Made by a program: the position numbers and the translations under genes. 54,744 bases of DNA from Candidatus Omnitrophota bacterium (GTDB lineage Bacteria; Omnitrophota; Gorgyraeia; Zapsychrales; JANLHA01). The DNA is taken from positions 1-54,744 of the forward strand of contig JAGOJP010000001.1 of the NCBI GenBank assembly GCA_017995055.1, written 5' to 3'. Under the pieces are notes generated by a model. It saw only the letters and a program-made list of their open reading frames with translations. It was not told the origin of the DNA and made no database searches. How positions within the stretch are numbered: the stretch's first letter is position 1; the number at the start of each line of letters is the position of its first letter. Shown here in pieces: positions 6,319 through 12,687 of the stretch.

Positions 6319-7620
6319 ATGACAAAAAATCAAATTCCCCGCTATTTCGGGCCTGTCGTTAGCTTGTTGTTTTTTTTAATTTTAATAATAATATTAGAGT
6401 TTATTTCGGCCTATATTCCTACTGAAAAAAATGAACTTGAAAAAATACTTCTTGTTTTAGAACAAGATGCGGCACTCTTTTGGAAGCAAAAATCCCACTT
6501 AGATACAATTTTTGATGATGTTAAGGTCAAAACGAATAGTATCGGATTGCGTAATAAAGAAATTTATCGCAAAAAAGGGAAAGGTGTTTTTAGAATCATA
6601 TGTCTTGGAGCTTCCCCCACATTCGGCTGGGGCGTTAATGAAGATCAGATGTATTCGTATCGGCTCCAGCAATTGTTGAACGATAATCCAACGTTGCAAA
6701 AGGATATTGAAGTCATTAATGCCGGGGTCATAGGATATAGTTCTTATCAAGGATTGAATTTTTTTAGGGAAAAAATCATAGACTATGCGCCAGATCTTAT
6801 TACCGTATCTTATGTTATTAATGACGTTGATAAACATCGTTTTTATCGCAGTAATGGAAAGCCTGACAAAGATTTAGAGAAAAAGAATGAGTTTTGGGTT
6901 ACTCTGGAAAATTTTTTATATCAAAGTAAAACAGTAACCTTGTTAAACCACTATATTATGCAACGCCAATCGGCAGCCATAAAAAATTTTGGTAAACAGG
7001 GAAAAAGTCGATATAATGAAACAAGACGTGTGTCAGTTGATGAATACCGGGCGAATTTAAAGGCGATTATTCAGATAGCAAGACAAAATGGCATTCGGGT
7101 CATTTTGATTAAAATGCCGGTCAATCTGCCTGCTGCAGAGAACATCTCTACCGCCAGGCAATTACAAGCTGATAGTTCCATAGAAAGGGCATTGGCCTTC
7201 GCGTCAACGCAGCGATTCGATGAAAGCATCAAAGCGTTAAAAGAGGCTATTCTATATAATCCTTATTCAAGCAAAGCATTTTATTATTTGGGTCAATATT
7301 CAGAACACATAAAGGATGAGAATGATGCCCAGGAATATTTTAAACAAGCATTAAAAATGGAGCTTTTTGAATGCGAAAAATTAGGAAAAGTATACAATAA
7401 GGTAATGGAAGAAGTTGCGGCGGAAGAAAATGTTGTCCTGGTTGATATTGTTTCTGAATTTGCTGTGTATAAGGAAAAGCATAAGACGCCGTTGTTCCTG
7501 GAATATAAAAAAGATACAATTCATCCCAATCCTATTGGACATCAAATCATCAGTCAAGCCATCTATAAAATTTTAATGAACAATGCTGTCTTGTTTAAGA
7601 AAAATGATGTTAAAATTTAA
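6319..7620 (+). CDS. SGNH/GDSL-family hydrolase fused to TPR-like repeats, N-terminal TM anchor
   Basis: Block I-like RIICLGASPTFGWG and block V DTIHPNPIGH (DxxH). TPR-like AFYYLGQYSEHIKDENDAQEYFKQALKM. Hydrophobic N-terminus. Confidence 0.7.
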   Translation: MTKNQIPRYFGPVVSLLFFLILIIILEFISAYIPTEKNELEKILLVLEQDAALFWKQKSHLDTIFDDVKVKTNSIGLRNKEIYRKKGKGVFRIICLGASPTFGWGVNEDQMYSYRLQQLLNDNPTLQKDIEVINAGVIGYSSYQGLNFFREKIIDYAPDLITVSYVINDVDKHRFYRSNGKPDKDLEKKNEFWVTLENFLYQSKTVTLLNHYIMQRQSAAIKNFGKQGKSRYNETRRVSVDEYRANLKAIIQIARQNGIRVILIKMPVNLPAAENISTARQLQADSSIERALAFASTQRFDESIKALKEAILYNPYSSKAFYYLGQYSEHIKDENDAQEYFKQALKMELFECEKLGKVYNKVMEEVAAEENVVLVDIVSEFAVYKEKHKTPLFLEYKKDTIHPNPIGHQIISQAIYKILMNNAVLFKKNDVKI

Positions 7621-7684
7621 AAGATTGGAGCAGGCAAGGGTGTGTTCCTGTTAATAGATAGAAGAATAAGGAGCAGGATTTCAG

Positions 7685-7861
7685 ATGAAAAAGTCACGTA
7701 TCAAATCCAATATTGAATTATTAAGGGAATTAGCCGTTTTGATCATGATTAATAAGAAGTGGTGGCTGTTCCCGCTTTTATTCATCCTTGCTTTTTTAAG
7801 CTTATTTGTTAGTTTGAGTGGGAATCAGTCAATCTTGCCGGCAATTTACGCATTATTTTGA
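7685..7861 (+). CDS. 58-aa small membrane protein, DUF5989-like (below the ORF-track length cutoff)
   Basis: ATG 7685 to TGA 7859-7861. Translation is MKKSRIKSNIELLRELAVLIMINKKWWLFPLLFILAFLSLFVSLSGNQSILPAIYALF. The KKWWL.P...one TM...P.IY.LF-COOH pattern matches my memory of DUF5989. Confidence 0.6.
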   Translation: MKKSRIKSNIELLRELAVLIMINKKWWLFPLLFILAFLSLFVSLSGNQSILPAIYALF

Positions 7862-9915: not shown

Positions 9916-10756
9916 TTACACTGTTATTTTATTCTCGGGAGGGACGGACTCGACCTTGGCCGCCGCCCTGATGGCAGATAAATTTGAAAAGATTTTTTTA
10001 GTGACATTCGATCGCTACGGCTTTTTTTCAATAGAAAACACAAAGTTAAATGCGCAGAAATTAGCCGAGAAATATGGCCGGGATAAATTCATTCATCAGA
10101 TCATTAATATCGATAGATTGACACAATACGTATTCTACGAACGTTATCTGCATAATATATTCCAACATGGATTTTTCCTGCTTTCTATCTGCGGGCTTTG
10201 TAAATTAGCCATGCATATAGCGGCCATCGTTTTCTGTATCGAACATAAAATAGGTCATGTGTGTGACGGGGCCAATCAGGGAATGTCTCTATTCCCGGCC
10301 CAAATGAGAGATGTGATAAAAGAAATTAAGCACATGTATGCTGATTTTCATATTGATTATTCCAATCCTGTTTATGATTTTGACAGTCCGCCTGATGCCG
10401 GGTTCCTGGACCGGCTGCATTTTGATCGTGTCTTATCAAATACTCAAGATGCCGTGCCGGGGGAAGAAGCCGTAGGTAAAACCACGGGATGCCAATTGTA
10501 TGCGCTTGGTCTTATGCCGTCCGAAAATGTGAAGGGAACAGCCTTGGATCGTAAAATGCAGGCGCGCTGTTTTCAATTTATATTATTTAATATTTTTGTC
10601 CAATGGTATTATCTTTATGACCATTCTTACGATGAATATGTCAAGGCGACATGCCGGTTTTATAAAGAGAAAATTGTTCATCTAACGGATATCATTAAGG
10701 AATATGAACAAGCCGGGAGCCAAAGTAAGCTGTATAAACTGCTTCATAGACGATGA
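9905..10756 (+). CDS. PP-loop ATPase (adenine nucleotide alpha-hydrolase superfamily; QueC/TtcA-like)
   Basis: N-terminal VILFSGGTDSTLAA (SGGxDS PP-loop). Internal CGLCK cysteine pair. Confidence 0.7.
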   Translation: MNPNYTVILFSGGTDSTLAAALMADKFEKIFLVTFDRYGFFSIENTKLNAQKLAEKYGRDKFIHQIINIDRLTQYVFYERYLHNIFQHGFFLLSICGLCKLAMHIAAIVFCIEHKIGHVCDGANQGMSLFPAQMRDVIKEIKHMYADFHIDYSNPVYDFDSPPDAGFLDRLHFDRVLSNTQDAVPGEEAVGKTTGCQLYALGLMPSENVKGTALDRKMQARCFQFILFNIFVQWYYLYDHSYDEYVKATCRFYKEKIVHLTDIIKEYEQAGSQSKLYKLLHRR

Positions 10757-11139
10757 GTAATATTAGAGATACAGGTTGTTGCGGATTTTGTTTTCAGGAA
10801 AAAAGGTCCTATGTGTTGGGATTAACGGCACGGGCTGTCCCTTGAGTTATATTTTCTGGAATAGCCTATTTGATTCTTAGTTTTTGTCATGAGGTAATCT
10901 TCGGATGCGCGAAGTATAAAAATATGGCACAGTGCATACGAAGAGCCAATCGGCCATTCATTAACAAAATGCCACTCTCTCCGGCCTGTTTTAATAAACG
11001 GCGACCAGGGCTGTCATGCTTGGTATAAAAAATGGCCTCCGTCACAGAGTATTTCTGCGTATAATAGGATAGAAGAAGCGAAGAGTGTTATTGAAATGAC
11101 AAAAATTAGTCGGCCTTATTAATATATTTTAAATTCATT

Positions 11140-12687
11140 ATGACCTGTTCCTTAAAAGTTAAATTGTGTATCAGCCTGTTTAGTTTTATCCTCTTTCTAG
11201 GCATGCTTGAAATCGGGTTGAGAATTGTCGGCTACTTTACTTTGCGTAGCCGCAATCGGCTTTCAATCTCTTCCTTTGAAAAAGAACTAAAAGCAAAACA
11301 ATCTCTACAGCTTGAAATAAGGACTCGGGATGAAGACCGGACTTTAGGGGGGAATATACCGCCTTTTACAACCGTAAACGCGGGGAAAAATGTTTATTCA
11401 ATTTTATGTGTGGGGGATTCTTATACGTACGGCGGCGCTGTCAGTTTTGAAGAGACATACCCGTCCCTATTGCAAAATATGCTTGATGCAAGCGATCTTC
11501 CCCCAAAATTCAAGGTTTATAACGGTGGAATATGTGAATATAATTCCCGGCAGTTATTAAATAGATTGCCTAAATTTATTAAAACCTACCGGCCAAGAAT
11601 TGTTGTCCTTCTAGACGGGGCATCGAATCGGTATAATTTTGCGCTTTATGATATGCACGGAAATACTTTCATGGGTTTTATCAAAAGTTTAAGGATTTAT
11701 AAGATGGCAAAAATTATATCATTAAACTTAATACAGCGTTCCTTTAAATCGAAAGTCAAACGTCTGGAACAAGGATTCCCGAAGAGTATGCATGTCCAGC
11801 AAGGAGAGGACGGCTATCTTTTAAGGCAACCAGGTTCAGATTGGCTTGATGCTCATGTCTTTTCCATTGTATCACCCGAGGATGTTAAAACAACTTATGA
11901 CAAAGTGCGGTTTTATTACAATAATGGAAATATAGAGGAAGCGCTTAGCTTATGCAAGACATCTTTGCAGGAGAATCCTTCGGCTGTGGACTTGTTAAGC
12001 ATCATGGCCTATATTTATTCAAAAACGAATAGGATGGAAGAAGCCCAAGCGCTTCATGATCAGGCTTTCCAAATACAACCCAACTCACAATTAGTTTCGG
12101 CTTATAGAGCATATTTCTATGAAAATTTGGTTATTCATTCAAGCCAAGACAGAAAAAAATCGGAAATTATAGAGTATTGTCTAAAAGCGATCGAATCTGA
12201 TCCTTTTTACGGGTATCCGAATTACTGGGCCTTAATCACTGTATTTAAACTTCAAAGCAAGTATGATGCTGATTATATTTTGGATTTTTTTAATGGCCTT
12301 ATTGAAACCCATCCGGCTCTTATGGAAAGCAAATTATTCTTGAATTATTACAACTATTTTAAAAATACTCAAGAATGGGAAGGGCATATAGAAAAATGGC
12401 TAACGGAGGATTTGGAAAAAATAGTAAAATTATGTAAGAAAAACAATATCACACTCATTATTCAAAATTATCCCTACAGTTATACCATGGCCAACCAAGC
12501 CCTTAAAAATACAGCCTCAACTCATTCTTTAGATTTTGTTGATAATTACAGCGTTTTTAAAAAATTAATCAATCAGGCGAATTATAATGACTATTTTTAC
12601 GATGATGAACATTGCACGAAAAAGGGGCATTATATAATGGCAGAAAATGTGTTTCATGTTCTTCAACAGCAGTTTAATTCAAAATAA
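11140..12687 (+). CDS. SGNH/GDSL-family hydrolase with TPR-like middle region, N-terminal TM anchor (paralogous architecture to 6319..7620)
   Basis: ILCVGDSYTYGG (GDS block I) and DDEHCTKKGH (DxxH block V). TPR-like EEALSLCKTSLQENPSAVDLL... Confidence 0.7.
   Translation: MTCSLKVKLCISLFSFILFLGMLEIGLRIVGYFTLRSRNRLSISSFEKELKAKQSLQLEIRTRDEDRTLGGNIPPFTTVNAGKNVYSILCVGDSYTYGGAVSFEETYPSLLQNMLDASDLPPKFKVYNGGICEYNSRQLLNRLPKFIKTYRPRIVVLLDGASNRYNFALYDMHGNTFMGFIKSLRIYKMAKIISLNLIQRSFKSKVKRLEQGFPKSMHVQQGEDGYLLRQPGSDWLDAHVFSIVSPEDVKTTYDKVRFYYNNGNIEEALSLCKTSLQENPSAVDLLSIMAYIYSKTNRMEEAQALHDQAFQIQPNSQLVSAYRAYFYENLVIHSSQDRKKSEIIEYCLKAIESDPFYGYPNYWALITVFKLQSKYDADYILDFFNGLIETHPALMESKLFLNYYNYFKNTQEWEGHIEKWLTEDLEKIVKLCKKNNITLIIQNYPYSYTMANQALKNTASTHSLDFVDNYSVFKKLINQANYNDYFYDDEHCTKKGHYIMAENVFHVLQQQFNSK

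Follow-up and report, generated by a model that had tools for sequence, protein, structure and literature searches.

The question raised by this locus is where a block of AT-rich genes in an Omnitrophota genome comes from, whether its genes belong together, and what they might do. The block lies in a stretch of 54,744 nucleotides, hereafter the window, from a Candidatus Omnitrophota bacterium (GenBank assembly GCA_017995055.1, contig JAGOJP010000001.1, positions 1 to 54,744), which is contig C35 of the host assembly (G000; 2.23 Mb, 176 contigs). It contains six co-directional genes: S1 and S2, coding for SGNH enzymes with tetratricopeptide repeats (TPR); D, coding for a DUF5989 microprotein; R, coding for a B12-binding radical S-adenosylmethionine (SAM) enzyme; t, coding for a hydrophobic microprotein; and P, coding for a PP-loop enzyme. 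Between P and S2 are the remnants of two more genes, c and U, and the string reads S1 - D - R - t - P - [c'-'U scar] - S2. A sequence-only reading of this DNA had already made the six gene calls, and these were confirmed, with Pfam or NCBIfam matches for all but the 63-aa open reading frame (ORF) of t, which belongs to no family. The same reading could name no pathway for the combination, and this holds, as no characterised pathway matches it and DUF5989 and DUF7411, the type to which P belongs, are without papers.

We found that the segment from 6096 to 12761 has been recently acquired from a foreign source and is a member of a cassette that recurs in other genomes, two statements of which we are nearly certain. 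Regarding function, we infer, with a modest degree of confidence, that the cassette is a membrane-linked tailoring relay for envelope molecules.

A recently acquired segment

The block had been described as AT-richer than its flanks, and the computed profile is indeed not flat. In 1-kb bins the G+C content is 0.36-0.40 across positions 6001-13000 and 0.49-0.54 on either side, and 200-nt windows locate the sharp steps at about 6300 and 12700. The genome as a whole has 50.7% G+C and the segment 6096-12761 has 38.0%, which makes it the lowest of 2469 windows of equal size (6.7 kb) covering the whole assembly (mean 0.506, standard deviation 0.027, z about -4.7). The G+C content at third codon positions is likewise low in the six genes of the block (0.33-0.44) and is 0.58-0.60 in the flanking genes. 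At its other hosts the cassette has the G+C content of the host itself, from 30 to 56%, so that the mismatch seen here indicates a recent arrival from a low-GC donor; the composition of the insert has not ameliorated. The low G+C points to a donor absent from the databases. The nearest relatives retrieved in the donor search share 59-88% (mostly 59-73%) amino acid and about 67% nucleotide identity with the insert and have 45-50% G+C, and on both counts they are not the donor.

The site itself is preserved empty in two genomes of the same genus. The genes flanking the insert upstream and downstream are 91% and 95% identical to their counterparts in G001, and 87% and 70% identical to those in G003, and in both congeners the two genes lie about 300 bp apart. 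Alignment of the spacers showed that homology to both empty sites stops at about 6095 and restarts at about 12762, which places the true borders, at about 6096 and 12761, slightly further out than the limits of 6319 and 12687 originally given to the block (Table 1). On its left the insert adjoins the terminator of a 1248-aa GT35-like gene, and on its right the promoter region of a gene for a protein of 221 aa. The hairpin at 6066-6092, which had been taken as the left boundary, exists, but it is the terminator of the GT35-like gene; since both congeners retain it, with compensatory changes, at their empty sites, it is part of the host backbone and not the border of the island.

Furthermore, the segment is rare. 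Among the 29 genomes of the family that were examined, the PP-loop protein P is encoded in two, this one and one of another genus (G008). The cluster is thus neither universal nor syntenic in relatives, and its accessory status is borne out both by the intact empty sites of the congeners and by the absence of the cassette from the other 27 genomes. Within the sampled population the situation is the opposite of patchy: the same insert, at the same site and with the same scar, was found in at least 8 independent assemblies (several metagenomes and one deposited metagenome-assembled genome) with 99.7-100% identity, and the D protein is identical in at least 8 assemblies. Because it is present in at least 8 independently assembled contigs, the insert is no assembly artefact and is fixed in the population sampled. 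At this level of identity these further assemblies give no power for a comparison of nonsynonymous and synonymous substitution rates (dN/dS).

The means of entry left no recognisable trace. In agreement with the sequence-only reading, no tRNA was found within positions 1-22000 and no integrase or recombinase among the neighbouring genes; moreover, the insert has no terminal direct or inverted repeats beyond chance, and no copies of its ends were found elsewhere in the genome. The insertion as such is an ordinary kind of event. Nothing related to the non-coding leader was found in this genome or at related loci, and the leader folds in an ordinary way (z +1.26); it may be either a leader brought from the donor or filler from the insertion event. 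A search of the leader and the gaps against Rfam at a permissive threshold returned a single match of chance level (6055-6133, 20 bits, E 0.43), far below the gathering cut-off.

Table 1. Position of the insert, its genes and gene remnants, and the adjoining host hairpin in the window
Feature	Position	Strand	Description
Host terminator hairpin	6066..6092	+	GGGCGGGC-loop-GCTCGCCC, then TTT; last host sequence before the insert
Inserted segment	6096..12761	+	6666 bp, 38.0% G+C; replaces a spacer of ~110 bp in congeners
Non-coding leader of insert	6096..6318	+	223 bp, ~47% G+C, unlike the remaining insert
S1	6319..7620	+	SGNH hydrolase/transferase-type, 433 aa; Pfam SGNH + TPR
D	7685..7861	+	DUF5989 microprotein, 58 aa; PF19451, E 5.7e-12
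Spacer D-R	7862..8237	.	376 bp; same junction ~95-120 bp in closest relatives
R	8238..9731	+	class-B radical SAM, 497 aa; B12-binding + Radical_SAM (Pfam)
t	9724..9915	+	hydrophobic microprotein, 63 aa; overlap with R 8 nt, with P 11 nt
P	9905..10756	+	PP-loop (AANH) enzyme, 283 aa; SGGTDST (alignment)
c remnant (pseudogene)	10753..10983	+	first ~77 codons; in-frame TGA 10843-10845; 3' third lost
U remnant	10997..11122	+	last ~40 codons to the stop (...GCHAWYKK...); rest deleted
S2	11140..12687	+	second SGNH-TPR enzyme, 515 aa; Pfam, 39.5 bits
3' tail of insert	12688..12761	+	GCCCC...GGGGGC hairpin; host sequence restarts at TTTTTGCGGTTAAAAAAG

A cassette that recurs across phyla, and its deletion scar

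Using a profile of P we collected 76 loci from species-representative genomes, and searched their six-frame ORFs iteratively with each of the cassette proteins. Co-occurrence was counted in the 46 species-level loci with a full-length P, the denominators being the loci that could be evaluated. Gene t adjoins P in every case (46/46), c follows P in 22 of 41 loci and U in 21 of 41, and, at a distance of up to 10 kb, 27 of 32 loci have an SGNH gene and 22 of 32 a DUF5989 gene. In 13 of 32 loci, mainly those of Omnitrophota and Elusimicrobiota, P has a B12 radical SAM gene no more than 2 kb away. The constant core of the cassette is the pair t-P, usually followed by c and U and accompanied by SGNH and DUF5989 genes. 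The carriers belong to Omnitrophota, Elusimicrobiota, Halobacteriovorax and other Bdellovibrionota, bins labelled Rickettsiales, Thermodesulfobacteriota, and one Gottesmanbacteria bin.

In the tree of P the window groups with loci L015, L095 and L096 (SH-aLRT support 99). The first two of these, its closest relatives, show the order S1-D-R-t-P-c-U-S2, and the three loci are 59-88% identical to the window. After S2 the closest relatives carry PMT-type and GT2 glycosyltransferase genes, and L015 also has a YfhO-type gene further on. Just upstream of S1, both L015 (3004-5043) and L095 (3374-5413) encode a 679-aa spermine-synthase-like protein, plus an unassigned protein of about 285-304 aa; neither was transferred with the island. 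In the other carrier of the family, G008, all six genes are present (33-77% identity), and behind them come one gene for 121 aa and one for 464 aa, the latter of class-V aminotransferase fold. In Bdellovibrionota the cassette lies beside a carbamoyltransferase that is fused or adjacent to SxtJ and has its own second DUF5989 copy. Examples from Halobacteriovorax and Bacteriovoracaceae, in which t-P-c-U stands next to a carbamoyltransferase and a second DUF5989 paralogue, are L044 (14817-17063, with 17060-17269), L054 (12843-14786) and L046 (3447-5894). In L044 the carbamoyltransferase is fused to the SxtJ domain, and non-B12 radical SAM genes are also present.

Two long non-coding gaps, 7862-8237 and 10757-11139, had been reported in the block. 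Both exist, but the second is not empty. The 383 bp between P and S2 hold the remnant of c in one frame and that of U in another. The c remnant starts with MSNIRDTGCCGF and is 39% identical over 77 aa to a 122-aa protein of L015 (tblastn, E 8e-15), with further blastx matches. In relatives, c is a membrane protein of about 120 aa with hydrophobic segments, an N-terminal DTGCCGF and an invariant Cys-Cys-Gly near the N-terminus. The U remnant is 48% identical over 40 aa to residues 360-399 of the 405-aa protein of L095 (E 7e-10). The U proteins of relatives are of the SufS/CsdA type (386-430 bits on TIGR01979), and since the lysine that binds pyridoxal phosphate (PLP) and the persulfide cysteine are both kept in 27/27 members, U is likely to be a true persulfide-forming desulfurase and not a lyase of the YcfC type. 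The scar, in which the 5' part of c is fused to the last 40 or so codons of U, goes back to one deletion of about 1.3 kb that took the 3' third of c and about 358 codons of U. In this genome the sole possible substitute for U is an unlinked SufS-like gene on contig C66, with 36% identity.

The loss of this pair of genes is recurrent, given that the presence and absence of c-U on the P tree requires at least 4 changes of state and, most parsimoniously, 9. Locus L096 lacks c and U cleanly, its P and S2 genes overlapping, and three further loci without the pair (L051, L050 and L055) have exactly the gene order of the window. The first gap, between D and R, held no protein remnant, no Rfam match and no fold out of the ordinary (z 0.07). 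A cobalamin or SAM riboswitch ahead of R was considered and dropped, there being no Rfam match and only ordinary folding energies.

Proteins of the insert

The six remaining ORFs have the same length as their orthologues and keep all the invariant catalytic residues. At its N-terminus S1 has a membrane helix, and a TPR module interrupts its SGNH domain between blocks III and V; the protein reaches 61.8 bits on Lipase_GDSL_2 of Pfam (cut-off 32.9), and its catalytic residues S99 (GASPTFGWG), G139, N168 and D399-x-x-H402 are intact and invariant across 17 orthologues. The AlphaFold2 model of S1 (pLDDT 85.5) shows a helix at residues 6-32 and a helical TPR insert, and its fold matches are generic SGNH esterases (Axe2, TesA). 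In one metagenome assembly of the same strain (L103) a 4-bp insertion (GAAC), at the equivalent of position 6459 of the window, shifts the frame of S1, which could reflect either true inactivation or a mistake in the assembly. S2 has a hydrophobic helix at its N-terminus, GDS at residues 92-94 and DDEH close to its C-terminus, and is 64-69% identical to the S2 proteins of L015, L095 and L096.

The D microprotein scores 45.9 bits on PF19451 (cut-off 27) over positions 2-49 of the 49 of the model. Its basic N-terminus is followed by a single membrane helix and by a tail of 14 residues that ends in LPAIYALF-COOH, and the charge pattern suggests that this tail is probably extracytoplasmic. A tail of the form PAIY-x-[LIV]-F-COOH occurs in 33 of the 38 members of the family, in 31 of them as AIYA[LI]F, and the tyrosine at position -5 and the terminal phenylalanine are invariant (38/38), the first residue of the motif being mostly alanine. 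The D paralogues that stand beside carbamoyltransferases end in PFIYTLF or PLLYPLF, and phenylalanine is first only in some of them (PFIYTLF).

R has the CxxxCxxC motif at GCPFNCTYC, and scores 79.7 bits on Radical_SAM and 32.1 bits on B12-binding, the latter exactly at the cut-off. It reached no NCBIfam equivalog (the best, BchE, at 134 bits versus 481), and its closest solved relatives, at only E 3.5e-15, are too distant to suggest a reaction. The host assembly contains 31 matches to R and its congeners 29-38, and at least 8 paralogues of R stand in a row in G008 (C8:44687-63317), on the same contig as the cassette and within about 30 kb of it. The t microprotein has the motif LPW-x-x-R...E-x-LGW-x-x-Q, in which the positions LP..R..E..GW..Q are invariant in alignments across phyla, and is 69% identical to the copy in G008.

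In P, the PP-loop SGGTDST is invariant, as are four cysteines of the family alignment (C96-x-x-C99, C111 and C222). The AlphaFold2 model (pLDDT 83) finds its best Foldseek matches in YcfA (9kq6 and 9kq9; E 2e-8, template modelling (TM) score 0.76), ahead of QueC (E 2e-5) and of TtuA, NcsA and LarE (E 1e-4 to 1e-3). The family profile finds YcfA at E 1.1e-18 over residues 7-165 and QueC only at E 1e-3. An identification of P as QueC was rejected, given that QueC covers only the first 60 residues or so, at E 1e-3 to 1e-6, versus 1e-18 for YcfA. The family of P is small, with 125 matches at E <= 1e-30 among 1.84 billion representatives at 50% identity, only some thirty of them full-length; databases name them 'hypothetical' or, mistakenly, 'QueC', and give no other functional name. 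No papers on DUF5989 or DUF7411 were found.

Outside the insert, the upstream secreted GT35-like protein (2272-6018) shares its first 370 residues or so with 9-14 paralogues per genome in the family, at 44-60% identity. Many of these paralogues are very long, and one match in G008 (C1:57340-59169) lies within an open frame of 81,822 codons that resembles the giant genes reported from Omnitrophota.

A possible relay to the cell envelope

The sequence-only reading had allowed for either envelope or glycan modification or the tailoring of a small molecule or peptide. Of these, an envelope target is favoured, because proteins of the cassette are membrane-anchored and because PMT, GT2 and YfhO-type genes follow S2 in the closest relatives. 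We propose that P, held at the cytoplasmic face of the membrane by t, would activate a substrate close to the membrane by adenylating its carbonyl or carboxyl group, and would swap the oxygen for sulfur. The sulfur would be mobilised by U, possibly via the N-terminal Cys-Cys of c; in this genome it could be supplied only by the unlinked SufS-like gene on C66. R would add a radical-SAM/cobalamin step, most simply a methylation, and D would pass the group, carried on its C-terminal tyrosine, to the periplasmic S1 and S2, which would attach it to an envelope glycan or lipid or, conversely, take it off. The parts of this proposal are not equally probable. By analogy with its structural relatives, we consider the case for sulfur-insertion chemistry by P to be evenly balanced. 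That a tyrosine shuttle and SGNH enzymes relay a group onto envelope molecules, again by analogy, is more tentative and falls somewhat short of that balance. The complete proposal, a hitherto undescribed kind of group transfer through the inner membrane that needs neither MBOAT nor AT3, is doubtful. In it, a YcfA-like enzyme docked to the membrane by its microprotein would make a thio-carbonyl or thio-acyl group with the sulfur of a dedicated SufS, and this group, or one related to it, would travel via small membrane proteins and the DUF5989 tyrosine to the SGNH-TPR enzymes and onto an envelope polymer.

The first analogy is with the YcfA-YcfC pair of 6-thioguanine synthesis in Erwinia amylovora (PDB 9kq6/9kq9). 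YcfA activates guanine nucleotides by adenylation of their C6 carbonyl and attaches cysteine, and YcfC, a PLP enzyme without a persulfide cysteine, cleaves the adduct to give a thioamide (PMC12494993). P shares the YcfA-like adenylating fold and keeps SGGxDST, and in relatives it is likewise paired with a PLP enzyme of cysteine desulfurase fold. However, the persulfide cysteine that is absent from YcfC, a C-S lyase, is retained in this partner, U (RSGVHC[CAG]H, 27/27). P itself differs from YcfA in its four invariant cysteines, YcfA having none at the CGLCK position, in a further helical half at the C-terminus and in depending on a microprotein, t, as obligate partner. In this window, moreover, the PLP partner has been deleted. 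The iron-sulfur AANH sulfurtransferases TtuA, NcsA and CtaC (closthioamide) resemble the cassette in their PP-loop fold, in having a true cysteine desulfurase as partner and in that the several invariant cysteines of P could hold a cluster. They differ in that their fold matches to P are weak (E 1e-4 to 1e-3, TM score about 0.3), the spacing of the cysteines in P is another one, and P has no tRNA-binding or zinc-finger parts.

The second analogy is with DltX-DltB-DltD of teichoic acid D-alanylation and PatA-PatB of peptidoglycan O-acetylation. The motif FxYxxF is the tyrosine acyl-shuttle motif of DltX and of MBOAT proteins, and PatA of Neisseria gonorrhoeae ends in FIYANF (PMC12148441). The points of resemblance are that D, a single-pass microprotein with a basic N-terminus, has a short tail x-I-Y-x-[LIV]-F-COOH whose tyrosine stands at the FxYxxF distance from the C-terminus, and that it is encoded next to SGNH enzymes with N-terminal membrane anchors, S1 being directly upstream. 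Unlike the Dlt and Pat systems, the cassette has neither an MBOAT or AT3 protein nor a carrier protein, and its activating enzyme is a PP-loop protein (a carbamoyltransferase in the sister cassettes) instead of DltA or acetyl-CoA. Its SGNH enzymes, furthermore, carry a TPR insert.

The third analogy is with the sxtI-sxtJ-sxtK-sxtL genes of cyanobacterial saxitoxin clusters and the widespread sets of carbamoyltransferase, SxtJ and DUF5989 genes. We take sxtL to be a GDSL-family gene and, by its size and database naming, SxtK to be a likely DUF5989 member. The sxt clusters contain, in order, a carbamoyltransferase gene, sxtJ, a 165-bp gene without assigned function, and sxtL, of about 1.28 kb, which has been assigned to decarbamoylation (PMC2679770). 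In both kinds of cassette a microprotein and an SGNH/GDSL gene stand beside a cytoplasmic, ATP-using enzyme that activates a group, and in Bdellovibrionota the two kinds are physically joined. They are not the same, as there is no carbamoyltransferase or SxtJ in the window or in the rest of the assembly, and the PP-loop enzyme with its own microprotein is found instead. The comparison suggests a shared logic, in which different cytoplasmic activating enzymes may feed the same pair of microprotein and SGNH enzyme. Taken as a whole, the cassette is undescribed and phylogenetically wide, and it is built from parts of AANH thionation and of a tyrosine-shuttle/SGNH relay while failing one defining feature of each.

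Several observations weigh against the relay proposed here. Neither the island nor the cassette at the loci inspected was found to encode a polytopic membrane protein, of the MBOAT, AT3 or another kind, by which the tyrosine of D could be loaded; the one MBOAT gene seen, in L018, stands upstream of P at a distance of about 7 kb, with unrelated genes in between. The D motif begins with alanine and not phenylalanine, and the fold search with S1 did not single out DltD or PatB. In the window the genes of the dedicated sulfur donor have been destroyed, and this copy may be inactive or need no sulfur; about half of the related loci are without c and U altogether. Finally, in the sxtI-J-K-L precedent a likely DUF5989/SGNH pair belongs to a small-molecule pathway (PMC2679770).

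This last point leads to the strongest rival, in which the cassette tailors a diffusible small molecule, P thionating a metabolite and D and the SGNH enzymes acting as is assumed for SxtK and SxtL next to a carbamoyltransferase. YcfA, the closest solved relative of P, makes an antimetabolite, the order of carbamoyltransferase, SxtJ, 165-bp gene and sxtL is that of the sxt clusters (PMC2679770), and the cassette of Bdellovibrionota adjoins a carbamoyltransferase-SxtJ fusion with a second DUF5989 gene. We nevertheless regard a small-molecule product as unlikely, as no nonribosomal peptide synthetase, polyketide synthase, terpene or like core genes recur beside the cassette in the 46 loci, the cassette has three membrane microproteins, both of its SGNH enzymes are membrane-anchored, and the PMT, GT2 and YfhO-type neighbours of the closest relatives belong to envelope glycosylation. 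Somewhat less probable still is that the island is a decaying and non-functional remnant, which lost its sulfur-donor genes after acquisition and of which the rest is drifting. The in-frame stop in the c'-'U scar, the unusual length of the spacer 7862-8237, the frameshift of S1 in the L103 assembly and the unameliorated composition would all fit such decay, but orthologue length and every invariant catalytic residue have been kept in the six ORFs, otherwise intact arrangements without c and U recur naturally (L096, L050, L051, L055, L028 and L037), the SufS-like gene on C66 exists, and the insert is fixed in all of the at least 8 assemblies sampled.

Two other explanations carry little weight. 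The overlaps of 8 and 11 nt that join R, the 63-aa ORF and P, and the presence of radical SAM enzymes of ribosomally synthesized and post-translationally modified peptides (RiPPs) among the best NCBIfam neighbours of R (ApyD, 1.3e-35), might suggest a trio for RiPP maturation with the small ORF as precursor peptide. However, t is hydrophobic and conserved from end to end, without the pattern of a leader and a variable core, it stands beside P in 46/46 loci, including the Bdellovibrionota loci in which no B12 radical SAM gene is closer to P than 2 kb, and no protease or exporter gene is linked; a peptide product is accordingly very improbable. We give about as little credence, or slightly less, to a housekeeping unit for nucleotide or tRNA thiolation or an anti-phage defence of the QatC kind. 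A PP-loop enzyme with a cysteine desulfurase is the classical pairing of tRNA thiolation, P has a weak match to QatC (E 0.005) and the block is on an accessory island; against this, the occurrence is patchy (2/29 genomes of the family), membrane microproteins and SGNH partners do not fit tRNA enzymes, the partners QatA, QatB and QatD are absent, and PADLOC recognised no system, R alone matching a candidate model, generically, as B12 radical SAM proteins do. An envelope-directed relay thus remains the reading that we prefer.

The window provides a natural before-and-after comparison, in which the mobile unit is defined as S1-D-R-t-P-c-U-S2 and nothing else. This unit moves without recognisable mobility genes, and the sulfur-donor pair has been caught during its loss while the other six genes are intact. 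DUF5989, the DUF7411-type PP-loop enzyme and two unnamed microproteins have no literature, yet the set recurs across phyla, including the predatory Bdellovibrionota, and since Halobacteriovorax, a cultivable genus, carries the full cassette, bench testing is possible. If the proposal holds in full, it would imply a thio-modified cell-surface molecule of a kind not yet described. The carbamoyltransferase sister cassettes would then work on the same principle, which would explain the long-unassigned genes of the sxtJ/sxtK type. If the interpretation of the tyrosine tail and its SGNH partners is correct, group transfer to the envelope can be fed by activating enzymes other than those of the MBOAT/AT3 route, and the small carbamoyltransferase-associated genes annotated as 'unknown' since 2008-2009 would acquire a testable role.

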